From the NCBI GenBank assembly GCA_964505635.1, contig CAZDIP010000001.1, forward strand, positions 116,386 to 180,385: a stretch of 64,000 bases of DNA, written 5' to 3'. Positions 34-62,983 of the stretch are shown here, piece by piece. This stretch comes from an uncultured Candidatus Saccharibacteria bacterium (lineage in GTDB: Bacteria; Patescibacteriota; Doudnabacteria; UBA920). Under the pieces are notes generated by a model, which was not told where the DNA came from, ran no database searches, and was given only the letters and a program-made list of their open reading frames with translations. A program made the translations under genes and the position numbers. Position 1 is the first letter of the stretch. Each line of letters starts with the position of its first letter.

Positions 34-1432
34 CTATTTTATTGCCAATTCCTGGCCGTTGAAATGTTGTATAACTTTGTAAATTTTTTGTAAATAATTG
101 ACTGTTTCTTGCCTTAAGGCGGCTGGTTGTAAAGTATCCAGCTGAGAGTTTATGCCGGCTAATTCGGTTTGGGCTTTAGCAAGCTGGGATTTTAGGCTGT
201 TTTGAGTTTTTTTGTCAGGAGCCTTTTTAATTTTTGCTTTTAAATTTTTTATTTGCGTATTAGCTTTGTTGGCCTGGTCTTTTAGTATCGCAATTTGTCC
301 ATTACGATCTTCATTCCAGGTATCCCCAAAAGCATTGACCGCTCTGGCCACTCTGGTCGTTCCGCCATTGTAAGAAGCCGCGGCATAGTCAAAAACTCGG
401 CCAGAGGCAAAGCCGTAACTCGCCTTGATTCTCACCGCTCCCGCGTAGTCGTCCAGCAGTAAATACATGGCTTTTATAGCATTTCTGTGATCCGACATGC
501 CGTCTACAAAATTTGCTATTAAGTTTAAATCAGCATGTCTTTTAACCAGCGATTCGTAGGTGGAAGGAATAAATTGGGCTATTCCGCGTGCGCCGGCGGA
601 AGAAACGCTGTATTTATAGGTATCGCCTGTATTTAAAGCCAGTAAAATATTTAACTGGTTAATTGTGCCCTGGGCATTATTGTTAACTAGCACTTGCGCG
701 GTGTCTGTATGTTCGGCATAAACCAGTGCTTTTATTAAACTCGGTTTTATGGCTTCGGTGATGGTAAGTCCCGGCACTGCTTGGGAGGGAATATGGCTTA
801 AACTTTGGGCAACGTCTGAAATTACATTATTTAAGTAATTCGCGCCGTAATTTAAAACATCCGAAGAATTGAAATTTGGATTATAAGGCACATATAAAGC
901 ATCATAAATACCGGCTTCAATTTTTGCTTTGTTGCCGCTCTCCGGATTAGTAATTAAATATTTTATTGCAATGACTTGGGCGTTTTCAGGCTTTGTTACT
1001 GAAAACCGGCTATTTACTCCGTTAAACCTGACCAAGCTAACCTCTGTATCACTTTTGGGGAAAGTCATGGTCTTGCCGTTTTGTTTACCCACCACAATTT
1101 TTATGTTGTTAGTGTTGGGGTCTAATACTGCAACAGCAATATCCTTGCTGGTTAAATTGTAGGAAGAAATGGTCTTTGTTGTTTTACCGGTTTTTTTGTT
1201 CTTTACGTTTTTGTAAACCGGAGTTAAACTATAACTCAATTTTATCTGGCTTAATTTTGCTTTTGCTTCCGCAGCGGCGAGGATCAAAGAAGGTGCCGTG
1301 CTCGTGCTTTGCCCTAAAATTAAAGTCGGCGTTGTTGAAGCCTGAACCGAATTTGAAAAATTTATCAGGCCTAGGCCTGATAATAAAGTTGCGCACAAAA
1401 ATAAAAGACAATTTTTTGTTTGTAATTTCATG
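34..1432 (-). CDS. secreted lytic transglycosylase (SLT domain) with C-terminal coiled-coil region
   Basis: Signal-peptide-like N-terminus MKLQTKNCLLFLCATLLSG..VQA. SLT-type motif AEH ... SSAGARGIAQFIPSTYESL. The internal Met at 1432 is preferred over the track start at 1482. Confidence 0.6.
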
Positions 1433-5095: not shown

Positions 5096-6385
5096 ATGGA
5101 TTTATTTTTATTTTTCCTATTTATTGCATTAGCTTTTGGTTTTTTTTGCTTTTTTGTCAGGGGGCCTTACAAGCAAAGTCCTTTATGGCTTATGTTTTCA
5201 GCATGGATGTTGGCCTTGGGTGTACCAAGACTTAATTTATCCCGAATTGAACGTCCCGGAAGTTTTGAATTTTGGATTTTGGTTTTTTTGTCATTGGCAA
5301 GTTTTGCTTTCGGGTTTTTTGTTTTTAAAGCCTGGGCTGATAAGTGGAAAATTTGGGCGCAAATTGCCACTTATTTCAATAACGAGATTTCCCTAAAAAC
5401 TTTACGTATTGTTATCTATATTTTGTGCCTAATTTCTTTAGCCGCTCTTTATTTATTTTATGAAAAAGCCGGAAATTTTCCGCTGTTAGATGTTAGTCCC
5501 GACGAGTTTAGATTTGCGGCGGATGAAAAAGTTCCAGGCTTAATTAATTATTCCGCCCAGCTTGCCAGGTTATTTGTGCCTTTATCTTTTTATCTTATTC
5601 TTAAAGAAGGTTTTGTATTTAAAAAACACCTGGATTTAGTTATTATTAATTTGGTTGGGATATTTGCCCTGATTTTGTTTGCTTCAAGAACCCAGATATA
5701 TTTTATTGACCTGTGGGTTATGGCCTTGTATTTATTTATAAGAAAACCAGACTTAAAAAGGGCTTTAAAATTTTATCCGATCTTTTTGTTAATATCAGTC
5801 GTGGTTCTTTCAGCAATTCCTTTAATAAGACAAGCAAAAAGCTATGGTAGCGACTATTTGGCCGACATAACGGAAATTGACAGCAGGAATTTTTCAAGGC
5901 CAGCGAAACTTTTATTGCCAATTTATGTTGGAATTTCGTTTAATATGCAGGCTCTTATGCACGCAGAGGAATATTATCAACATAACCCTTTGCAAAAAGG
6001 CAAGGTCAGCATGCATCCTTTTACTAATATGCTAGGGCTGAAAAATTTAAAACCGGAATTTGATTTGGGCAAAATTTTTAAACCATGGTGGAATACCGGG
6101 ACTTATTTATTTCCCTTCATTCAGGATTTTGGACGGGTGGCGTTTTTTGCGGTGCCGTTTTTGTTCGCCGGTGTTTTTACAATTTTGTGGAAATTTTTAC
6201 AGACAAACGCTAATTTTTTATCCATAAATTTTTATGCTTACGTTTGCTTTTTTATAGTAATGAGTATTTATTTGTCATTTACAGTAAGAGCTGAAATGTA
6301 CATGGATATTTTTTTTATTTTTCTAATTTATTTTCTAACAAAAAAACCAAACACTAGGTTGCTAGATAGTAACCTAGTGAAATAA
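5096..6385 (+). CDS. Wzy-like O-antigen/oligosaccharide polymerase family membrane protein
   Basis: Polytopic membrane protein with no catalytic motif, located between glycosyltransferases. Assignment rests on context and topology only. Confidence 0.4.
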   Translation: MDLFLFFLFIALAFGFFCFFVRGPYKQSPLWLMFSAWMLALGVPRLNLSRIERPGSFEFWILVFLSLASFAFGFFVFKAWADKWKIWAQIATYFNNEISLKTLRIVIYILCLISLAALYLFYEKAGNFPLLDVSPDEFRFAADEKVPGLINYSAQLARLFVPLSFYLILKEGFVFKKHLDLVIINLVGIFALILFASRTQIYFIDLWVMALYLFIRKPDLKRALKFYPIFLLISVVVLSAIPLIRQAKSYGSDYLADITEIDSRNFSRPAKLLLPIYVGISFNMQALMHAEEYYQHNPLQKGKVSMHPFTNMLGLKNLKPEFDLGKIFKPWWNTGTYLFPFIQDFGRVAFFAVPFLFAGVFTILWKFLQTNANFLSINFYAYVCFFIVMSIYLSFTVRAEMYMDIFFIFLIYFLTKKPNTRLLDSNLVK

Positions 6386-20822: not shown

Positions 20823-21202
20823 GCTCTAAGCAAACTCATAAGCCGAATTCTGTTTACCCAAAATAAATTTTAGGTTTAATAATCATCTATCTGCCGTCGG
20901 TATTACTACCGAGGTCAAGCAGCCTACCAAATTTGGCCTTGCACTCAAGTAAGGATTTAGCCGTTTCACCTCAAATATTTCTATAAGAGATCGCCCTGTC
21001 ATTTTTGACAGGGCGTTTTATTTCTTTCGAAATAAAACGTTTCTGTTCGCACCTCGCGTTTTACAACGGACGGGTGTTACCCGCTACTCTTTTGATAACT
21101 CTATAGAGGTCATCAATAAGTGTTCGGACTTTCCTCCCCATTCATTGTTTGCAAAATTTTGCAGCTTCCAATCAATGGGCGATTATTCGGTTTGCTTAGA
21201 GC
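20823..21202 (-). ncRNA. rnpB: RNase P RNA (bacterial type A-like)
   Basis: On the minus strand: 13-bp P1 helix between 21190..21202 and 20823..20835. P4 5' strand GAGGAAAGUCCGAAC (rc of 21121..21137) and P4 3' strand ACAGAAUUCGGCUUAU (rc of 20839..20854). GGUAGGCUGCUUGA (P15-like, rc of 20905..20918). GGUGCG and a GAAA-tetraloop hairpin. Length is about 380 nt. Confidence 0.85.
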
Positions 21203-26054: not shown

Positions 26055-27143
26055 ATGAAAATTTTACTAGTCGGCGGAGGTAGTGGAGGCAGCGTTTCCC
26101 CGCTACTTGCTGTTGCTGAAAAAATCAAACAAAAACAGCCGGGAAGTTTGTTTTTGTTTGTCGGCGGATTCAAAGGGCCGGAGAGGGAAATGGCGGAAAA
26201 AGCCGGTATGCCGTTTGTTAAAATTCCGGCAGGTAAGTTGCGCAGGTACTTTAGTTTAAAAAATTTATTTGCGCCTTTTTTAACACTGGTTGGTTTTATT
26301 TTAGCCATAAAAATATTAAAGCAATTTAAACCCCGATGTGTTTTTGGTACCGGCAGTTTCTTACAAGTCCCCGTAATTTGGGCGGCCTGGTTTCTAAAAA
26401 TACCCAGTGTAATCCACCAGCAAGATATAATCCCGAGTTTGGCTAACAAATTATGCCAGTGGCCGGCAAAAAAAATTACTGTTACGTTTGAACAGTCAGC
26501 AAAAGATTTTAGTTCCGGCCTCGGACTTTTTTACAGTAAACTTGAAAATAAAGCGGTTCTAACCGGAAATCCTTTTAGGCACAATTTAGAAGGTTTTACG
26601 CGTGAATCAGGGCTTAGGCATTTTGGACTTTCGCCGGATTTTCCCACGTTATTAGTTTTAGGCGGTGGAACAGGCGCGGAATTTTTAAATAAACTTGTTG
26701 AAAAAAGTCTTGGTGATTTAATTAAATACGTGCAAATTATACATTCAACCGGCAGAGGAAAAATAACTCGCACGCAAATTTATAACAGGTACAAGCGCTA
26801 TGAGTTCATTTCAGAAATGGGGCAGGCATTTGCAGCGTCGGATTTTGTGCTCAGCCGGGCCGGACTTTCTACAATAACAGAACTTTCCAACTTACAAAAA
26901 GTCAGCATTTTGGTTCCGATACCTAAAACACACCAAGAAATTAACGCCTTGCTATTAATGGAAAAAAAATGCGCATTGGTTGTTCCGCAAAAAGCTTTGA
27001 ACACAGAAACTTTTGTACGGCTTATCCGTAAGCTTATTTTTGAGAACCAGCTACAAAAAAATTTACAAAAAAACATTGGAAAAATCATGCCTAAAAACTC
27101 AGCCGAAAAAATTTCTGATATTATTATTAAACTAGCAAACTAA
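26055..27143 (+). CDS. murG: undecaprenyldiphospho-muramoylpentapeptide beta-N-acetylglucosaminyltransferase
   Basis: MKILLVGGGSGGSVSPLLAVA (G-loop) and C-terminal RAGLSTITEL ... QEINALLL (GT28). Confidence 0.7.
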   Translation: MKILLVGGGSGGSVSPLLAVAEKIKQKQPGSLFLFVGGFKGPEREMAEKAGMPFVKIPAGKLRRYFSLKNLFAPFLTLVGFILAIKILKQFKPRCVFGTGSFLQVPVIWAAWFLKIPSVIHQQDIIPSLANKLCQWPAKKITVTFEQSAKDFSSGLGLFYSKLENKAVLTGNPFRHNLEGFTRESGLRHFGLSPDFPTLLVLGGGTGAEFLNKLVEKSLGDLIKYVQIIHSTGRGKITRTQIYNRYKRYEFISEMGQAFAASDFVLSRAGLSTITELSNLQKVSILVPIPKTHQEINALLLMEKKCALVVPQKALNTETFVRLIRKLIFENQLQKNLQKNIGKIMPKNSAEKISDIIIKLAN

Positions 27144-28087
27144 TGGTTAAAGATAGGCCTACTTTAGGACTCGCTTTAAGTGGAAGCGGTAACCGAACCG
27201 CATTTTATATTGGATTTTTGGAATATCTCAAAACTCAGGAAATTCAAATACACTACATAACGGCTATGTCAGGGGGTTCTTTGGCAGCTGCCGCCTTTGC
27301 GTGCGGAAGCCTGGATCAATTAAAAAATATCACCTTAAACTTAAACAGTAAAAATATAAAAAAATATTTTGTGAAAGCAAGCGGCCACGGCGGACTTTAC
27401 AGCTTAGATATTGTGGAAGAAGAAATGCGAAATTTAACCCAGGGCAAAAATTTTGAGGATGTAAGGCCTATTATGACCTTTATTGGAGTTGATGTTGAGT
27501 CGGGTGAGTTGTTGGAAATGTGTATGGGAGATATTGCGCGAGCAGCTAGAGTTTCGTGTACTTTACCGGGGATTTTTGAACCCGTTAAATGGGGTAATAA
27601 AACTTTAGTCGATGGAGGTTTGCTTTCTCAGGTCCCAACAGCTTCCTTGAAAAAATTCCAGCCTGATGTGACAATTGGCATTAATATGCGAGGCACAAAG
27701 CACATTTTTACCGAACGGCAAATCTCACTAAAAAAAATCTTTAATTTTATAAAGAAAATTTTGTTTTTAGACGAAATCGGATTGTTTGTGAACGGAGTAG
27801 GAACAGGACTTTTTGGATCTGACCTCAATAAAGAAAAAGAGTTGAGTATTTTTAGTATATTGGGCAAAAGTATGGATTTGGCCATAAAGGCAAACCAAAA
27901 TGCTGAAACAGAAAAAATTGAGTGTGACTTGCTTATTACCCCAAATATTCCCAAACTAAAACGCTCTGAATTGTCGGAAGAAAGTATGATATATTATTAT
28001 GAATTAGGTATGAAAACAGCTAAAGACTATCTGCCAAAAATTTCAAAATTGTTGGAGAAAGGAAAAATCTATGAAAAACAGCTCTGA
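27143..28087 (+). CDS. patatin-like phospholipase
   Basis: Oxyanion-hole region LALSGSGNRTAFYIG. Nucleophile elbow AMSGGS. Catalytic-dyad region LVDGGLLSQVP. Confidence 0.55.
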   Translation: MVKDRPTLGLALSGSGNRTAFYIGFLEYLKTQEIQIHYITAMSGGSLAAAAFACGSLDQLKNITLNLNSKNIKKYFVKASGHGGLYSLDIVEEEMRNLTQGKNFEDVRPIMTFIGVDVESGELLEMCMGDIARAARVSCTLPGIFEPVKWGNKTLVDGGLLSQVPTASLKKFQPDVTIGINMRGTKHIFTERQISLKKIFNFIKKILFLDEIGLFVNGVGTGLFGSDLNKEKELSIFSILGKSMDLAIKANQNAETEKIECDLLITPNIPKLKRSELSEESMIYYYELGMKTAKDYLPKISKLLEKGKIYEKQL

Positions 28088-29528
28088 ATTAAATAATTTA
28101 CTAGAAGGCGTCGAAAAAGTTTACTTTGTCGGAATTGGCGGTATCGCCATGTCAGCTGCTGCTAACTTAGCTAAACTTACTGGTTTGGAAGTTTTGGGCA
28201 GCGATAGCAAAACCGTCTATGACCCGGCAAAGGGAGTCTTAGATGAAAATCAAATCGCATATAAGGTAGGTTACGATGAAAAAAATGTAGCAAAAAATCC
28301 AGCTGATTTATATGTTCTTTCGGCAGGCGAAGGCTTAGAAAACCCGGAAGTCAAATATATTGTTGAAAAAAACTGGGTGAGAACAGGTTTAGCTGAATTT
28401 TTATTTAATTTAAGCAGGCAGAAACTCCGTGTAGTTATTGCCGGTACTCACGGTAAATCCACCACAGCGGCATTTTTGGGCCACATGCTAAAGAATCTTG
28501 ACGACTCTTCATTTATGGCTGGCGCCGTGCTCCAGAATTACCAAAGTAATTTTTATTTAGGAGAGGGTAATTATTTTATTTTTGAGGGCGATGAATATAA
28601 AGAACAATTTGACGACCCAAGCCCGAAATTTCATTATTACAAGCCGGATATTTTAGTTTTGACAAATTTGGAATATGATCACCCCGATCTTTTTGAAAGT
28701 TTCGATATTTTGGAAAATGAATTTAGGCAACTTATAGCCAACATGCCTGAAGACGGCCTTATAATTTATAACGGCGACGACGCAAATTTAACCAAGCTTG
28801 TCCATGAGTCAAACGTTTCAAGCGCAAGTTTTGGCGTAGAGAATGAGGCAGATTTTAAAATTGAAAACATCCAATACGGCCAATATACCAAATTCAGCCT
28901 TTATAATAAATTTTCAAAAAATCTATCCGCCCAGTTGGGCCAGCAGCTGGAAGAATACCAAATTCAGCTGCCCGGTAAACTAAATGTTTACAATGCTTTG
29001 GCGGTTGTCTCTACTTTAAGGGCCTTAGGCTTTCAGCCCGACCAGATTGCTTTGGATTTATTAACCTATGCCGGTGTTAAACGCAGGTTTGAAGTGGTAG
29101 GAGTAAAAAACGGCGTTACTATTATTGACGACTACGCGCATCACCCAACAGCGGTTATGGAAACGCTAAAGGCTGCCAAGTTAAAGTACCCTAATTCTAA
29201 ACTCTGGGCAGTGTTTGAACCCCACACTTTTAGCCGAACCCAGGCTACCTTGCCGGAATTGATTAAGGCTTTTGAGTCCGCTGATGAAGTTTTGATCTCA
29301 GAAATTTACCCGGCCAGGGAAAAAATTTCCAATGCGCCTATATCATCAACCGACATAATAAAAGAAATGGTTAATAAAAAACATAAAACCAAAGATACCG
29401 TCCGTCTTGTCCCTGACAAACAGGCAGCTCTAGATATTTTAAAAAAGGAAACTAAAGAAGGTGATGTAATAGTTGTTATGGCCGTAGGAGACTTTAACCT
29501 TTTAGCTTATAATTTAATACAGCAATAA
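28071..29528 (+). CDS. murC: UDP-N-acetylmuramate--L-alanine ligase (MurC/Mpl family Mur ligase)
   Basis: VYFVGIGGIAMSAAANLAKLTGLEVLGSD. ATP-binding VIAGTHGKSTTAAFL. Confidence 0.65.
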   Translation: MKNSSELNNLLEGVEKVYFVGIGGIAMSAAANLAKLTGLEVLGSDSKTVYDPAKGVLDENQIAYKVGYDEKNVAKNPADLYVLSAGEGLENPEVKYIVEKNWVRTGLAEFLFNLSRQKLRVVIAGTHGKSTTAAFLGHMLKNLDDSSFMAGAVLQNYQSNFYLGEGNYFIFEGDEYKEQFDDPSPKFHYYKPDILVLTNLEYDHPDLFESFDILENEFRQLIANMPEDGLIIYNGDDANLTKLVHESNVSSASFGVENEADFKIENIQYGQYTKFSLYNKFSKNLSAQLGQQLEEYQIQLPGKLNVYNALAVVSTLRALGFQPDQIALDLLTYAGVKRRFEVVGVKNGVTIIDDYAHHPTAVMETLKAAKLKYPNSKLWAVFEPHTFSRTQATLPELIKAFESADEVLISEIYPAREKISNAPISSTDIIKEMVNKKHKTKDTVRLVPDKQAALDILKKETKEGDVIVVMAVGDFNLLAYNLIQQ

Positions 29529-30368
29529 ATGCACCCGGTTATTAGACATTTAAAATCTCGTAAAAACAAAGCAATGCCATTTTGCGATCGAAGAAAAATT
29601 GCGCTAGTTAATTTCGGCGGTTTTATGAGTGGTGTAAGAAATGCCGGTGCTATGGTTGCTTTATTGGAAATGGGCTACGGAAAATCGTTTGATTCTATTT
29701 ACACCATATCCAGCGGATTTTTTAATGCATTAAGTTTTTTATCAGGTGACGGACAAAAAAATATAAGCGTGTATTATGAGAATCTTATCTCAAAAAATTT
29801 TTTTAACCCCCTTAGGCTATACAAATTAATTGACTCTGATTATTTAGTGAATATTCTTAATAAAGCTAAAAAAGTTAACATTGAAAATATTTTAGAACAA
29901 AAAACCGAGTTATTTTTAAGAGTAAGAAACCTAGGCAAAAATCGCGATGAATATTTAGAAGTACATAAATTTAAAAAGCCTTCTTTTAAAAAACTTTTTA
30001 AACTCGCTGCATCGGCTCCATATTTATCGCCAGGTTATGTAAGATTAAGACTAAATAATTATAAGGATCCACAAATGACCGAACTTCAAACAATCGAGCA
30101 TGTCAACTATGTTTTAAATTCCAAGGCCACCGATATTTTGATATTATATAATGAAAAATCCCAATATCTTTACGCAAAAAAACATGTGCCGGCTATTAAT
30201 AGTGACAGAATCTTTAATATTTATCCGTTGCAAAGCAGTATATTAGATAGGGTGGAAACTAGCCCAAAAAAATTAATGGTCAGCGCCGCGAGCATGGGAC
30301 GCTTATGTAAAAAGGCTTTTGGGCTAAGAAGCTCAATAAAACTTTATAAAAGTCCGGATAAAAAATAA
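29529..30368 (+). CDS. hypothetical protein, possibly a degenerate patatin-like fold
   Basis: VNFGGFMSGVRNAG resembles the patatin oxyanion-hole motif. TISSG occupies the GxSxG position but lacks the first Gly. Confidence 0.3.
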   Translation: MHPVIRHLKSRKNKAMPFCDRRKIALVNFGGFMSGVRNAGAMVALLEMGYGKSFDSIYTISSGFFNALSFLSGDGQKNISVYYENLISKNFFNPLRLYKLIDSDYLVNILNKAKKVNIENILEQKTELFLRVRNLGKNRDEYLEVHKFKKPSFKKLFKLAASAPYLSPGYVRLRLNNYKDPQMTELQTIEHVNYVLNSKATDILILYNEKSQYLYAKKHVPAINSDRIFNIYPLQSSILDRVETSPKKLMVSAASMGRLCKKAFGLRSSIKLYKSPDKK

Positions 30369-32569: not shown

Positions 32570-32893
32570 GTGAACATAAATATAAAGGCCACCAATACTA
32601 CTTTGACACCGGCAATTAGGCAAACAATAGAAGACAAAATTCAAGTTTTAGATAAATTCGTCAAAGCTGAGCACAAAATTCGGGTTGAATTGGAGGTTTT
32701 AAAAAAACATCACAAGGGCCTGGTGCACAGAGCGGAAATTGATATTCAGCCGGGAGGCTACTACGCCGACAGTCTGGGTGTGGACTTTTATGCGGCTTTG
32801 GATTTGGTTTTGCCAAAAATCAGGGAACAACTGGCTAAAAAGAAAGACAAAGAGGTGAGTATGCGCAGGCGAGCCGCAAGGAAGAGTATTTGA
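32570..32893 (+). CDS. hpf: ribosome hibernation promoting factor (RaiA/HPF, S30AE family)
   Basis: NINIKATNTTLTPAIRQTIEDKI ... VHRAEIDI. GTG start. Confidence 0.75.
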   Translation: MNINIKATNTTLTPAIRQTIEDKIQVLDKFVKAEHKIRVELEVLKKHHKGLVHRAEIDIQPGGYYADSLGVDFYAALDLVLPKIREQLAKKKDKEVSMRRRAARKSI

Positions 32894-33006
32894 CAATAAA
32901 AAAAATTACTTTATACTTGTACTATGTTAAGTTTCGGATTAAATTTAAATAATTCCTGGCCTTGGTTTTGCGTCACTTCGCAAAGCCGTGGTTTTAAAGT
33001 ACTTAC

Positions 33007-33022
33007 TTAATTACGTAATTAA
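33007..33022. promoter_or_regulatory. perfect 16-bp palindrome TTAATTACGTAATTAA
   Basis: Read directly, flanked by ACTTAC direct repeats. It lies upstream of the GC-rich gene. Confidence 0.4.
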
Positions 33023-33030
33023 TTACTTAC

Positions 33031-33058
33031 CCACCTTCTTTGCGAAGGTGGTTTTTTT
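33031..33058 (+). terminator. rho-independent terminator CCACCTTC-TTTGC-GAAGGTGG + T7
   Basis: 8-bp stem followed by TTTTTTT, read directly. Confidence 0.65.
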
Positions 33059-33066
33059 GTGCGGTT

Positions 33067-33101
33067 TAATAACTAATCTTACTTTATCAGGTTAGTTATT
33101 A
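33067..33101. promoter_or_regulatory. inverted repeat TAATAACTAA-N15-TTAGTTATTA (candidate operator) upstream of the GC-rich gene
   Basis: Perfect 10-bp arms, read directly, 30 to 65 nt upstream of the ATG at 33134. Confidence 0.4.
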
Positions 33102-33133
33102 GCCCACACATTAGGGCTATACTTATAGGAGGC

Positions 33134-33946
33134 TTGATGGGGACAAGAAGCTCGCAAGAACTATACAGGCTTTGCAACCTCGTTTTTCCTGTCTCTGAAC
33201 TTTTGCCCGAAATCCCAGATTGGGTAAAACGGGCGATTGGCCAGAGATTGACACGCGATAAAATAACCCTGGTTTCGGCAGTTTGTCCTGACTACGAAAT
33301 CAAGAACGGTAAATTCACTTACAAGGCCATGGGTCGTGATGCGCCACACACAGCGCTTCAGCACCTCAAATTAATGAAGGGTGCATGTGACGCATTGGAA
33401 AGTTTGGGTGTAGAGGTGGATTACCAGATGACACTGGCCGATACGGAGCTTGACCTGCCTTTAGTGGTAAATAACCTCGCCGGAGGAAGCAAGGACATTT
33501 TTCTTGAGAAGTGCCAGGAAAGTTGCAGAGTTCTTGAGCGACAAGCCGAGAGACTCGGAGTTCGGCTGCTGGGATGCAGGCGCTTTACGGAAGCATTCAG
33601 CAACTGGTACTGTGTTTACGAACGTGCCCGGCAGGTCCTGGAGGCGGAGATGTCGAATTCCTGGGCGCTCAAGCACGAATTAAACATCAGTTCACAAAGC
33701 CGCCTGCCACTTTACAAAGCCATGGCCGGACAGCAGGTTGGCCTGGATTACTGCCGTGAAATGGTAGTGCGCCAGTGGGCGCAATACATGACTTGGGGTG
33801 AATGTGCCGAAGGTTTGTACGGGTCTGGTTTGGTAATGATTAACCATTCAACACCCAACTTGGGCAAGGTTAACTATCCCAAATTTCGGGCTGGGAAACA
33901 ACGAATACCCATTCTGAAACTCAACATCTCTACCATGCCCGAATAG
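33134..33946 (+). CDS. hypothetical protein encoded by a GC-rich (about 50 percent GC) island; family not recognised
   Basis: 270-aa ORF with a strong SD (TAGGAGG, 5 nt before ATG), its own terminator, and compositionally foreign codon usage (CTG, CGC, GCC rich). Nine Cys. No recognisable catalytic motif. Confidence 0.5.
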   Translation: MMGTRSSQELYRLCNLVFPVSELLPEIPDWVKRAIGQRLTRDKITLVSAVCPDYEIKNGKFTYKAMGRDAPHTALQHLKLMKGACDALESLGVEVDYQMTLADTELDLPLVVNNLAGGSKDIFLEKCQESCRVLERQAERLGVRLLGCRRFTEAFSNWYCVYERARQVLEAEMSNSWALKHELNISSQSRLPLYKAMAGQQVGLDYCREMVVRQWAQYMTWGECAEGLYGSGLVMINHSTPNLGKVNYPKFRAGKQRIPILKLNISTMPE

Positions 33947-33966
33947 GTGAGCAACTTGTAAACGCG

Positions 33967-33999
33967 CGGCTCTCTGCAAAGGGAGCCGTGAAATTTTTG
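33967..33999 (+). terminator. terminator hairpin CGGCTCTC-TGCAAA-GGGAGCCG followed by T-rich tract
   Basis: 8-bp stem with one GU, then TGAAATTTTTGTT. Confidence 0.5.
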
Positions 34000-34017
34000 T
34001 TATAATTAAGTAAATTT

Positions 34018-34665
34018 ATGAAAAATATTTTTTTAATCACGAGTGCCCCCATAATAAATGCCATACACCCCTATGGCCTATATGACTCGTATAGTTTGGT
34101 TTCTCAAGACAAGTTATTTGCACCTTTAGCAAGTAAAGCAAAAAAATTACTTTTCTTTAAAAAAAAGAAAATTTTAAAAGAGCGGGTAAGCAAAATTTTC
34201 AGCGCTGAAAAAGGTCAGACGCTTGAAACAGCTAAACTTTTAAAAACTAAAGGCGTTAAAATTTTTCCTACCAAGGCCTTAAAAAATATAACATTTTCCA
34301 TGGAATCCTGTATTTCAAAAAATACCTTTATGTCTTTAGGTACTAAAGAAGCGCTTAAAGTTGCAAGGAAACAATTCGTAATTCAATTATTTAACAATAA
34401 TCTGGGTGAGTCAATGGATTCAGTTATTTTGCGCTCAAAAATTTTAATAAATATTATGAAAAAGGAAAATAAAAACTCACTTTTTATTGGCCATAGTTTT
34501 TTTATAAAAATCTTTGAAATATTTTTAACCGACCCGAAAGCCCTTTTAAATCAACGTAAATTTGTTAATCGCTTTAATGCCGCAAATAAGCCATTCAACC
34601 CTCTTGAAGGACTAAAGATTGAATTTATCAATGGTTCAATTAGGGTTTTCAAATACAGGCTTTAA
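34018..34665 (+). CDS. hypothetical protein
   Basis: AT-rich ORF. LFIGHSFFIKIF might hint at a histidine-phosphatase-like fold, but this is not supported further. Confidence 0.35.
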   Translation: MKNIFLITSAPIINAIHPYGLYDSYSLVSQDKLFAPLASKAKKLLFFKKKKILKERVSKIFSAEKGQTLETAKLLKTKGVKIFPTKALKNITFSMESCISKNTFMSLGTKEALKVARKQFVIQLFNNNLGESMDSVILRSKILINIMKKENKNSLFIGHSFFIKIFEIFLTDPKALLNQRKFVNRFNAANKPFNPLEGLKIEFINGSIRVFKYRL

Positions 34666-46014: not shown

Positions 46015-46024
46015 CAAATTTTTT

Positions 46025-46052
46025 AAAAAGCCTCTTAATTAAGAGGCTTTTT
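46025..46052. terminator. perfect palindromic terminator AAAAAGCCTCTT-AATT-AAGAGGCTTTTT
   Basis: Read directly, after secF. Confidence 0.7.
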
Positions 46053-46068
46053 AAATTTATTAGTATAA

Positions 46069-48575: not shown

Positions 48576-50330
48576 ATGGATAACACCGAAAACAAAATTA
48601 CGGTTTTTGCTAAAACAAATTTCCGAAATAAGGAAGTCGCTTTTGGCATAAAAACGGACGATCGCCGCAGGCATATGTACCTGATTGGAAAAACCGGCAT
48701 GGGAAAAACAACCATGATGGAAAACATGGTTATTCAGGATATTCGCAATGGAAACGGGGTAGCCTTTTTAGATCCCCATGGGGATTCTATTCAAAGAATA
48801 CTAAATTCTATTCCTTCCAGCCGAGTTAATGATGTCATCCACTTTAATCCCGCTGATCTGGAATATCCAGTCGCTTTTAACATCTTAGAAGCGGTTGATG
48901 CAAAATATAAGCACTTAGTTGCTAGTGGATTAATGGGTGTGTTTACAAAAATTTGGGCGAATTTGTGGTCAGCAAGAATGGAATATATCTTAAATAATAC
49001 CATCCTAGCTCTTTTAGACAGTCCTGGTAACACGCTTTTAGGTATTACACGCATGTATGTGGATAAAAAATATCGGAAGCGAATTGTTGATAATATTAAA
49101 GACCCGATGGTTAAAGCCTTTTGGGTGGACGAATTTGCCAATTATAACGAAAAGTATAGAACCGAAGCAATTGCCCCGATCCAAAATAAAGTTGGACAAT
49201 TTTTGTCTTCCGGAATCATCAGAAATATTGTTGGCCAGCCTAAAAGTACCATAGATTTAAGGGAAATCATGGACAAAAGAAAAATATTGATTATGGATTT
49301 ATCCAAAGGAAAAGTAGGCGAAGATAATTCTGCTCTATTGGGTGCGATGATAGTAACAAAGCTGCAGTTGGCCGCTATGTCCAGAACCGACATACCCGAA
49401 CACGAAAGGAAAGATTTCTATCTTTATGTGGATGAGTTTCAAAATTTTGCCACCGAAAGCTTTGCGACAATTTTAAGCGAGGCCAGGAAGTATAGATTAA
49501 ACTTGATTGTCGGGCACCAATATATTGCTCAGCTTGAACAAGATAAAAATACTAAGGTTAGGGACGCGATTTTTGGCAACGTTGGATCAATAGTACTTTT
49601 TCGCATAGGAGCAGCTGATGCGGAATTTTTAGAAACTGAGTTTGATCCCATTTTTACGCCAAATGATATGGTTAACCTGCCTAAATACCAGATTATTTTA
49701 AAGCTAATGATTAACGGCGTAGCCAGCGAGCCTTTTTCTGCAATTACTTTACCCCCTAGTCCCGATTATTACACAGGTAATATGGAAAAGGTCATAAAAG
49801 TTTCAAGGGAACGATACTCGAATTCAGTGACAGAAGTTGAAGAAAAAATATCCCGGTGGATGGGGGCTGAATTCCACCAGGAAACCGCGGTGTTGGTTGG
49901 CGATGTTTTGGTATCTCAAAAAACGGGGCAAGATAATCAAACTAAAATTCCCGAGTTTGAAAAGGAAGCTTCCGATGCTGATGACAAAAATTCCAAAGAA
50001 CCAAAAAGAAACGAGGTATTAAAATCTGAGAAAAAACCCCAAAATCCCGTCCAGCACCTAATTCAGGATGAAAAAGATAAAATTAAAAAATCAAAGCATT
50101 CAGTTAGTAAAATAGGACGGGTGAAAAAAGAGAATCCAATTTGGAATACCGTAGCGCAAATTAATCATACAAAAATTAAAGAAATTTTTGAAAAAAAAAT
50201 TCCTGAAAATAATGCACAAACTTCAGTTGTTAACGACAATAAAAAAAATTCAGGCGCTTCGGAAATAAAATTAGGATCTAGCAACCAGCCAACAGTTTTA
50301 GAACCCGGTAAAACTCATCTTATTAACTAA
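48576..50330 (+). CDS. soluble TraG/VirD4/TraD-like (type IV coupling protein family) P-loop ATPase
   Basis: Walker A IGKTGMGKTT. Walker B YLYVDEFQNF followed by ARKYRLNLIVGHQ (TraG-D_C-like). No TM helices. Lys/Glu-rich C-terminal tail. Confidence 0.55.
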   Translation: MDNTENKITVFAKTNFRNKEVAFGIKTDDRRRHMYLIGKTGMGKTTMMENMVIQDIRNGNGVAFLDPHGDSIQRILNSIPSSRVNDVIHFNPADLEYPVAFNILEAVDAKYKHLVASGLMGVFTKIWANLWSARMEYILNNTILALLDSPGNTLLGITRMYVDKKYRKRIVDNIKDPMVKAFWVDEFANYNEKYRTEAIAPIQNKVGQFLSSGIIRNIVGQPKSTIDLREIMDKRKILIMDLSKGKVGEDNSALLGAMIVTKLQLAAMSRTDIPEHERKDFYLYVDEFQNFATESFATILSEARKYRLNLIVGHQYIAQLEQDKNTKVRDAIFGNVGSIVLFRIGAADAEFLETEFDPIFTPNDMVNLPKYQIILKLMINGVASEPFSAITLPPSPDYYTGNMEKVIKVSRERYSNSVTEVEEKISRWMGAEFHQETAVLVGDVLVSQKTGQDNQTKIPEFEKEASDADDKNSKEPKRNEVLKSEKKPQNPVQHLIQDEKDKIKKSKHSVSKIGRVKKENPIWNTVAQINHTKIKEIFEKKIPENNAQTSVVNDNKKNSGASEIKLGSSNQPTVLEPGKTHLIN

Positions 50331-50358
50331 AATTCCCCCGCCTAGGCGGGGGAATTTT
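50331..50358. terminator. perfect palindrome AATTCCCCCGCC-TAG-GCGGGGGAATT, bidirectional terminator
   Basis: Read directly between the convergent ATPase gene (+) and trxA (-). Confidence 0.7.
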
Positions 50359-50360
50359 AG

Positions 50361-50681
50361 TTAAAGATACTTGTCTATTTCTGTTTTAAGTATTTCCTTT
50401 GGAGCAGCTCCGACAATTTCCCCAACAACCTTTCCTGCTTTAAAAATTTTTAAAGTTGGGATACTCATTACCCCATATTGTGAAGCTAAGGCATTGTTTT
50501 CATCTACATTTACCTTACCTATTTTTAACTTTCCCTGGTAATCTTGAGACAATTCTTCAACAATCGGTCCAATAATTTTACATGGACCGCACCAAACTGC
50601 CCAAAAATCCACCAATACCGGCACTTGGGAGTCTAAAACTTCATTTTTAAAATTAGATTCGCTTAATTTAATTGTTGGCAT
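50361..50681 (-). CDS. trxA: thioredoxin
   Basis: VDFWAVWCGPCK active site. Confidence 0.85.
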   Translation of the reverse strand: MPTIKLSESNFKNEVLDSQVPVLVDFWAVWCGPCKIIGPIVEELSQDYQGKLKIGKVNVDENNALASQYGVMSIPTLKIFKAGKVVGEIVGAAPKEILKTEIDKYL

Positions 50682-62608: not shown

Positions 62609-62896
62609 CTAGCTCACAAAATCCCGAGCGAAGATCGCCTGATGCTTAGGTGTCTGCAAATCCTCGCTGAACAACTTGAACTGATCTTCTCCCAACAGGC
62701 GAAGCACTTCGCCGGAGGTTATTTTTGTGGTTTTTACGAGCCCTTCAAGGTCTTCTTTGGGGTCACAATCTCCCGACCCCGATAGAGCCAGGCTGTCCAC
62801 CTGCGCGAGTACCTCGCACATTGGGATCATGGGGTCGTCCCCATAGAGTTCGGGGTGATCTTTAAAAAACTGACTCAGATTTTCCAGGTAAACCAT
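62609..62896 (-). CDS. small hypothetical protein (95 aa) encoded in a GC-rich island
   Basis: Strong SD (AAGGAGAGGG) 5 nt upstream of ATG. Starts MVYLENLSQFFKDHPELYGDDP. Composition is clearly more GC-rich than its flanks. No recognised family. The track start at 62929 is rejected. Confidence 0.45.
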   Translation of the reverse strand: MVYLENLSQFFKDHPELYGDDPMIPMCEVLAQVDSLALSGSGDCDPKEDLEGLVKTTKITSGEVLRLLGEDQFKLFSEDLQTPKHQAIFARDFVS

Positions 62897-62983
62897 GCAT
62901 GCCCTCTCCTTTTTTTTGACTGAAAACAAGTTAGATTAGCATAACACCAGTTATTTGGCAATATTTAAAATTTTAAATTTCCC

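Follow-up and report, generated by a model that had tools for sequence, protein, structure and literature searches.

A predicted tryptophan attenuator ahead of an undescribed class-Ic synthetase-fold family and its degenerate phosphatase partner in CPR/Patescibacteria-type bacteria

Introduction

Three lineages are built on the Rossmann core of the class-Ic aminoacyl-tRNA synthetases (aaRSs): the synthetases themselves (TyrRS, TrpRS), the cyclodipeptide synthases (CDPSs; YvmC, AlbC, and Rv2275), and the PvcA/IsnA/Dit1 proteins. In this work we analyzed a gene, called X here (33137..33946, plus strand), in a 64,000-nt stretch of an uncultured Candidatus Saccharibacteria bacterium (GenBank assembly GCA_964505635.1, contig CAZDIP010000001.1, positions 116,386 to 180,385; the whole stretch is referred to as the window), together with the partner gene that follows it (34018..34665, plus strand). 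Like the CDPSs, which are single-domain proteins of ~220-270 aa, X is one domain with a class-Ic Rossmann core and without the HIGH motif, the KMSKS motif, and the anticodon-binding domain, and in the secondary structure of its model a conserved nucleophile-type residue lies at the C-terminal end of the first beta-strand, which may correspond to the CDPS Ser. Unlike the CDPSs, to which it has no detectable sequence relationship (Pfam CDPS at E ≤ 1; PDB sequences), X carries a C-P-D-Y signature with Cys in place of Ser, has an obligate partner of phosphatase fold, is predicted to be induced by low Trp-tRNA (Trp, tryptophan), and does not sit within a secondary-metabolite cluster. With the class-Ic aaRSs X shares genomic and regulatory ties to trpS, tRNA-Trp, and Trp sensing; apart from the missing motifs and domain, it differs from them in not matching PF00579. 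PvcA, IsnA, and Dit1 are set apart from X by PF05141, which X does not match, by a partner oxygenase that X lacks, and by other conserved motifs.

The trpL leader of E. coli and the trpRS1 leader of Streptomyces are ribosome-mediated trp attenuators. The leader of X resembles both in its short ORF with close Trp codons, its mutually exclusive 1:2, 2:3, and 3:4 hairpins, and its intrinsic terminator. It differs from them as follows: its mRNA is apparently leaderless (ATG 6 nt past the -10 box), its ORF spans segment 2 and stops ~20 nt before the terminator, and the controlled genes are neither trp biosynthesis genes nor trpS. In B. subtilis, the anti-TRAP operon rtpA-ycbK is not biosynthetic and responds to uncharged tRNA(Trp) by means of both a T-box and Trp codons in a leader peptide. 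The X operons are likewise non-biosynthetic and carry a putative T-box or leader Trp codons, whereas their products are unrelated to those of rtpA-ycbK and each genome of the Candidate Phyla Radiation (CPR) has one device, not both in series. CPR/Patescibacteria are metabolically minimal and are presumed to rely on scavenged amino acids.

We concluded, with a rough probability of 0.72, that gene X is the first gene of a two-gene CPR operon with a Trp-sensing leader and encodes an aaRS-derived enzyme that acts in Trp handling. No description of the X family or of the X/partner operon was found in the literature.

Results

The leader of gene X in the window

An initial annotation, made from the DNA letters alone, had reported an ORF at 33134..33946 as a self-contained, GC-rich cassette with its own regulatory signals. 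The ORF is real: the frame is open from 33134, and with the ATG at 33137 its 269-aa product is identical to protein P0001 in a protein database search. Two of the reported signals are present as well, a canonical Shine-Dalgarno sequence (SD; TAGGAGG, 33126..33132, plus strand) 4 nt ahead of the ATG and a terminator-like hairpin 3' of the gene (see below). The annotation was also right that X has dedicated regulation, and it had missed the promoter and the small ORF of the structured leader. The sigma-70-like promoter (TTGACA-16 nt-TATACT, 32890..32917, plus strand) has 11 of 12 consensus matches, and its -35 box overlaps the hpf stop codon. There are 6 nt between its -10 box and the leader ATG, and the transcript is therefore predicted to be leaderless. 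The leader-peptide ORF (MLSFGLNLNNSWPWFCVTSQSRGFKVLT, 32924..33010, plus strand) has 28 codons and a stop codon at 33008-33010, with Trp codons at 32957-32959 and 32963-32965 (Trp-Pro-Trp, within SWPW); shuffling of the window leader yields such a Trp ORF in 21 of 5000 cases.

The leader RNA (32924-33140) has pronounced predicted structure (-70 kcal/mol, z = -6.6). Three plus-strand elements can be distinguished: hairpin 1:2 (32958..32993, -18.9 kcal/mol), the 5' arm of which overlaps the second Trp codon; an antiterminator pairing 2:3 (32976..33047), in which CTTCGCAAAG pairs with CTTTGCGAAG at -20.9 to -21.7 kcal/mol and the 10-mers 32976-32985 and 33038-33047 are 100% complementary; and an intrinsic terminator 3:4 (33031..33058), made of an 8-bp GC-rich stem (33031-33051) followed by T7. 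We modeled attenuation by footprint truncation, in which the RNA is folded after removal of its 5' part up to the ribosome position. A ribosome placed on the Trp codons leaves the 2:3 antiterminator as the predicted fold (-20.9 kcal/mol) and abolishes the terminator, whereas placement at the leader stop codon allows the terminator to form.

Two further elements upstream of X had been described as operator-like palindromes. The 16-bp perfect palindrome TTAATTACGTAATTAA (33007..33022, no strand) is present as reported and lies at the antiterminator apex, where it covers part of the leader stop codon. Its occurrence is unremarkable, as Markov-1 simulations give ~2.5 per 64 kb and at least one in 91% of simulations. 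A role as protein operator was rejected on account of this chance-level frequency and because no copies occur elsewhere. The inverted repeat is also present and is larger than the 10-bp arms first reported: it forms an extra long hairpin between the attenuator and the SD (33058..33110, plus strand) with 22-nt arms at 33058-33079 and 33089-33110 (-20.5 kcal/mol, z = -5.9), lacks a T-run, and has no counterpart in the other loci that carry X homologs. An origin as a miniature inverted-repeat transposable element is unsupported, there being no second copy within the window. The folding computations thus support a different assignment, in which the upstream palindromes and hairpins would be RNA elements of one structured, trpL-type tryptophan attenuator rather than operators.

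Trp-linked elements and neighbors at other loci

Homologs of X were located in other genomes, and these loci are labeled L001, L003, and so on; L001 and L011 stem from groundwater sampled at Hainich H41. All 12 evaluable loci have a Trp-linked or tRNA-sensing element ahead of X. Clustered Trp codons are found in leader ORFs ahead of X in L001 (…LSWWGVKHLAFTSLC) and L003 (…KSWWGAGSQAFASVC), both with an SWW cluster, in L011 (MNKQITLSSSWWLHRPSTCAVAS, SSSWW), and in the distant L022 (MNHTNQTTTSQNWWWAARLRS, NWWW); L012 has a related leader with one Trp only. Shuffled leaders yield such Trp ORFs at 0.3-2% per leader, and the per-leader frequencies of 0.3-0.5% multiply to ~1e-10 (L001 and L003 counted once). 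The antiterminator/terminator switch by ribosome position also folds in L001, L003, L022, and L011. The promoter-6 nt-ATG layout of the window recurs in L001 (TTGACT-17-TAGCAT-6-ATG) and L003 (TTGACT-17-TATCAT-6-ATG), which suggests that these two leader mRNAs are leaderless as well.

A second device is found directly 5' of X in L004 (42.8 bits), L016 (38.9 bits), L021 (36.3 bits), and L017 (24.4 bits), where the leaders give sub-threshold matches to the T-box family RF00230. Each of the four runs full-length, with the T-box sequence (AGGGUGGUACCGCG in L016) and a terminator further 3'; the leader of L007 is weaker and T-box-like (16.8 bits). The predicted Stem I loops read GAA-UGG-G in L021 and (G/A)U-UGG-G in L016 and L017, and the UGG in the Stem I loop or 3' internal loop of these three loci is a candidate Trp specifier. 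In the Falkowbacteria locus L007, a 75-aa ORF with two CxxC pairs (5729..5956, zinc-ribbon-like) sits between the T-box-like leader and X; the other loci do not have it.

The third device is a putative repressor: a TrpR-family gene (PF01371) is immediately 5' in L001, L003, L008, and L012, and in the same four loci TACTAGTA or GTACTAGTAC, both ACTAGT operator-like sites, is located exactly at the X promoter. In sequence, these putative sites resemble the E. coli trp operator. A tRNA-Trp(CCA) gene lies 22 nt 3' of the partner gene in L021 and ~0.9 kb 5' of X in L004. Genuine TrpRS genes, with HIGN and KMSKS, adjoin X or lie near it in three arrangements (the synteny shared by L001, L003, and L008; L004; and L021), and X is therefore not the housekeeping TrpRS. 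On the strength of these predicted devices, we are confident that expression of the X/partner operon would respond to Trp.

Next to trpS in L004 (2821..3807, minus strand) and L021 (3181..4263, minus strand) there are multi-pass membrane proteins that are homologous to each other (27% identity, E 4e-18) and match no Pfam family; these are candidate tryptophan transporters.

Family, fold, and conserved residues of X

The X sequence was searched against Pfam, NCBIfam, PADLOC, PHROGs, and PDB sequences without a match; at E ≤ 1, no Pfam family was hit, including CDPS, PF00579, and PF05141. A scan of 57 sequences (X and 56 diverse relatives) against Pfam and NCBIfam matched no model, profiles of 57 relatives had no match in PDB, and neither a P-loop nor any other recognized domain was found in X, in agreement with the initial annotation. 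In the protein search, X had 20 close relatives (44-56% identity) and a single distant one (26%); Candidatus Falkowbacteria, an uncultured "Saccharibacteria" metagenome-assembled genome (MAG), and a Patescibacteria MAG are among the named sources. A profile search of 1.84 billion representatives gave 442 clusters at E ≤ 1e-3 and 13 at E ≤ 1e-30.

The AlphaFold model of X is of high quality by its own scores (predicted local distance difference test, pLDDT, 95.9; predicted template modeling score, pTM, 0.92). In a Foldseek search with this model the CDPSs came first (E 1e-4, template modeling (TM) score about 0.5), PvcA and PIsnA reached TMq 0.53, and similarity to the TyrRS and TrpRS cores was also found. 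A motif scan and the model agree that the 269 aa form one domain with a class-Ic aaRS-like Rossmann fold and without the ATP motifs, a combination shared with the CDPSs. The superfamily signature of X comprises C50-P51-D52-Y53, A101-D102-x-E104, S129, R189, A215-Q216-Y217, and N236..T239..N241. Across 160 superfamily sequences, conservation is 99% for C50, 99% for P51, 90% for D52, 96% for Y53, 93% for D102, 99% for E104, 88% for S129, 96% for R189, and 98% for Y217. Cys50 directly follows the first beta-strand in the secondary structure of the model, which would be the usual active-site position for this fold. We concluded that X belongs to an undescribed and unannotated family with a distinct Cys-based signature and, as judged from the model, is an enzyme derived from a class-Ic aaRS catalytic domain.

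The partner gene and the two-gene module

The partner gene encodes a 215-aa protein that matches PF00300 and has the histidine phosphatase branch 1 fold. It departs from the described members of that branch (PhoE, CobC, PspA, dPGM) at the catalytic residues: the RHG motif reads T-S-A in the window partner and T/C-S-A/G across the close family, Gln stands in place of the second phosphate-binding Arg, and the distal H159 is the sole invariant residue of the set. Since neither the nucleophilic His nor either phosphate-binding Arg is kept in the close family, the aligned sequences exclude a canonical phosphatase mechanism for the partner. The window partner is strongly basic (isoelectric point 10.2, net charge +25; family values mostly 9-10, range 7.8-10.2), has a GC content of 0.30, and, like the other members (12/12), contains no Trp residue. 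Its only signal in PADLOC is a weak, partial HamA match (E 0.002).

A homolog of ~210 aa is found by tblastn directly 3' of X in each sufficiently long locus (L001, L003, L007, L008, L011, L013, L016, and L004, with a partial one in L012), so that X is not the self-contained cassette first described. The pairing extends to distant X proteins of 19-27% identity in L004, L021, and L022. In L021 (X 19% identity) the next gene encodes a 205-aa partner. L022 (X 27% identity) has His_Phos_1 genes on both sides of X, in the order leader (WWW), phosphatase, X, degenerate phosphatase; the upstream gene (5415..5996) keeps the RH catalytic residues and is a canonical histidine phosphatase. For P0106 and P0174, two long and distant members, the gene neighborhoods gave no information. 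We concluded that X and its partner very probably constitute a conserved two-gene module of CPR/Patescibacteria-type bacteria. An identical partner protein was also seen in L024, a 1.9-kb Logan contig, between two truncated ORFs.

The two genes are separated by the terminator-like intercistronic hairpin mentioned above (33965..33999, plus strand), which is GC-rich and followed by a T-run (AAATTTTTGT); its stem, 33965-33990, has 11 bp (-20.4 kcal/mol, z = -4.4). A strong hairpin at this place was found in eight loci (-23 to -32 kcal/mol). The partner gene has no SD in the window, L001, L003, and L007. In the window, TATAAT sits 11 nt before the partner ATG, and from this sequence the partner may be made from a leaderless transcript of its own instead of being co-transcribed with X.

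Alternative readings of the locus

Four other explanations were weighed. The one that survives best, at low probability, holds that X is a CDPS-like enzyme that consumes aminoacyl-tRNA and makes a Trp-derived small molecule through a Cys (not Ser) acyl-enzyme. The fold similarity agrees with it, as does the conserved set of a nucleophile with Tyr, Glu, and Tyr, which resembles the CDPS catalytic set, and distant homologs in Pseudomonas sputi and in a high-GC genome lie in a quorum-sensing-linked oxygenase/acylase cluster. Induction at a shortage of charged tRNA(Trp), however, is the opposite of what a consumer of Trp-tRNA would need. The CPR operons, moreover, have no adjacent tailoring genes, the Pfam CDPS model is unmatched at E ≤ 1, and the obligate phosphatase-fold partner has no counterpart in CDPS pathways. 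The Pseudomonas cluster (L010, 4101..11083) is conserved in L020 (3805..10137), and the distant X homologs there are extended at the N terminus (393 aa in L010). Its order in L010 is LuxR, DUF4902, LuxI, fatty-acid hydroxylase, X', desaturase-like protein, 2OG-Fe(II) oxygenase, and penicillin-amidase-type acylase, and from its gene content it looks like an uncharacterized quorum-sensing-linked biosynthetic cluster.

Somewhat less probable is the reading of the initial annotation, a horizontally acquired, self-contained cassette with a defense, toxin, or host-interaction function, the GC content being foreign and the palindromes protein operators. Its main support, the composition of X, was borne out when the GC3 comparison (GC at third codon positions) was run: X has a GC content of 0.501 and a GC3 of 0.554 against window means of 0.377 and 0.360 and ranks first in GC (z = 3.0) and second in GC3 (z = 3.1) among the 57 window ORFs. 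The neighborhood of the module also varies by genome (hpf-secA in the window, trpS-trpR elsewhere), and the X family is unannotated. Against it, PADLOC and PHROGs give X no match and thus no defense or toxin signal. No integrase or transposase was seen among the ORFs neighboring X, as the annotation had noted, nor were flanking direct repeats seen at the module. The upstream elements make up a predicted attenuator whose Trp-codon leader recurs from locus to locus, and the 16-bp palindrome is within chance expectation.

The composition itself loses most of its force as a sign of acquisition, since the same bias occurs in close-family homologs. The initial annotation had named homologs of like GC bias in related low-GC genomes as evidence against its own reading, and the data go most of the way toward this. 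We calculated a GC3 offset as the GC3 of X minus the mean GC3 of the other ORFs in the same locus. The offset is +0.20 in the window, +0.09 in L001, +0.03 in L003, +0.07 in L007, +0.15 in L011, and +0.20 in L022 (2 background ORFs only); it is -0.08 in L008, -0.02 in L004, and -0.04 in L021. The adjoining partner, by contrast with X, is more AT-rich than the genome: its GC3 falls below background by 0.04 to 0.30 in all nine loci with background. When L013 and L016, which have no background ORFs, are added to these nine, the GC3 of X exceeds that of the partner by 0.12-0.33 in 8 of the 11 loci, and outside the window the X-high/partner-low pattern recurs in seven (L001, L003, L007, L011, L013, L016, and L022). 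A GC-rich X beside an AT-rich partner is a recurrent close-family trait and weak evidence for recent transfer. One idea is that the contrast reflects differential mRNA stability, which would agree with the hairpin conserved between X and partner at eight loci and with the absence of an SD from the partner gene. That the module as a whole was relocated or transferred long ago is plausible, because its neighborhood differs between lineages.

In a third and still less probable reading, X is an IsnA/PvcA/Dit1-like enzyme that joins the amine of an aromatic amino acid to a sugar phosphate, with the partner handling the phosphorylated co-substrate. The partner does come from a phosphate-ester-binding superfamily, and L022 has the extra canonical RH-containing phosphatase 5' of X. 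PF05141, however, is unmatched and the similarity is at the fold level only; the partner has lost the phosphate-binding Arg and His, the CPR loci contain no IsnB/PvcB-type oxygenase, and the making of an isonitrile from Trp under Trp shortage is hard to rationalize. Last, the hairpins upstream of X could be tandem hpf terminators, with the Trp ORF arisen by chance and X constitutive from an unrecognized promoter; both hairpins are indeed 3' of hpf with T-runs and the leader matches no Rfam family, but the series of promoter, leaderless ATG, Trp codons, exclusive hairpins, terminator, and SD recurs where the upstream gene is not hpf and the combined shuffle chance is ~1e-10, which makes this account very improbable.

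Other features of the window

The window has 57 called ORFs, 55 of them on the plus strand. The highest GC3 (0.598; GC 0.495) belongs to a 106-aa ORF at 62609..62929 (minus strand), which has no Pfam match and is a doubtful gene. The sole Rfam match at gathering level is RNase P RNA class A (20823..21198, minus strand, 115 bits). Palindromes of at least 16 bp number nine, against about 2.5 in Markov simulations. The long perfect ones are at 50323..50364 (42 bp), between a plus-strand gene and a minus-strand thioredoxin gene (50361..50681), at 46022..46055 (34 bp), and at 1362..1383 (22 bp), and these three are probably bidirectional terminators. Two patatin-like phospholipase genes (27143..28087 and 29529..30368) flank a putative murC (28071..29528, a name we presume) in a cell-wall gene region.

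Discussion

The leader folds, the recurrence of Trp-linked devices at other loci, and the synthetase-like model of X are consistent with the following scheme. The promoter over the hpf stop codon would start a leaderless transcript, the first 28 codons of which specify a Trp-Pro-Trp leader peptide. When Trp-tRNA(Trp) is scarce, the ribosome would stall at the leader Trp codons and cover the 5' arm of hairpin 1, which would free 32976-32985 to pair with 33038-33047; the antiterminator would then form and transcription would read through into X. When Trp-tRNA is ample, the ribosome would reach the leader stop codon and the terminator at 33031-33058 would end transcription. Because the operon would be induced when charged tRNA(Trp) falls, its products would be expected to add to or protect the pool of Trp or Trp-tRNA(Trp), not to draw on it. 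X and its partner may thus act on tryptophan or on (Trp-)tRNA(Trp), raising or protecting the Trp-tRNA(Trp) supply in shortage. X would probably use Cys50 covalently, in a thioester-type step, on a tryptophanyl substrate or on tRNA(Trp), and the basic partner may be a tRNA-binding or accessory subunit. Any one specific chemistry for X is a tentative choice, and on balance an unlikely one.

Several results weigh against the assignment of X to a Trp-regulated operon encoding an aaRS-derived enzyme. The transcription start sites, the leaderless translation, and the attenuation are computational predictions. Rfam matched no family in the window leader (Trp_leader, 16 bits, E 3.6), the T-box scores of 24-43 bits are below the Rfam gathering score of 93, and the candidate specifier of L004 is GAA-UGA-A, not UGG (AUG in another register). 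No TrpR or TrpRS gene is present within the 64-kb window. The sole profile-profile alignment, by hhalign of the X superfamily to the TrpRS of the same loci, had a probability of 0.7%, too low for residues to be equated, and the equivalence of Cys50 with the CDPS catalytic Ser is tentative. X contains 5 Trp residues (1.9%), and a Trp-rich protein is an odd product to make under Trp starvation. Co-transcription of X and its partner is uncertain, because a strong hairpin with a T-run divides them and the partner lacks an SD. The GC3 excess of X in the window (+0.20) is the largest in the family, and transfer from a GC-richer relative may have made some contribution to it.

The X/partner operon uses regulatory devices of known kinds; X itself is a new branch of the class-Ic synthetase fold, paired with a pseudo-phosphatase. 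It is rather unlikely that the biochemistry of the pair is new in kind. We consider it similarly doubtful that X and its partner are a new Trp-starvation-induced pathway from which CPR bacteria obtain Trp or Trp-tRNA(Trp); in one example of such a pathway, Cys50 would take a tryptophanyl group from a donor and release Trp or pass it to tRNA(Trp), with the basic pseudo-phosphatase as tRNA-binding subunit. If true, the pathway would be a new feed for translation in organisms whose amino acids are thought to be wholly imported.

The locus has a more general bearing on three points. A GC-rich ORF within AT-rich DNA need not be foreign. The X family, with about 440 representative metagenome clusters and no match in Pfam, NCBIfam, or PDB, would be a fourth lineage on the class-Ic synthetase core beside the aaRSs, the CDPSs, and IsnA/PvcA. 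Three sensing devices (leader peptide, T-box, and TrpR-like repressor) appear to tie the pair to the charging of tRNA(Trp), and the two genes may therefore carry out a selectively important, unrecognized step in tryptophan handling, for which the Trp-based regulation gives an experimental handle, tryptophan being the variable to change.

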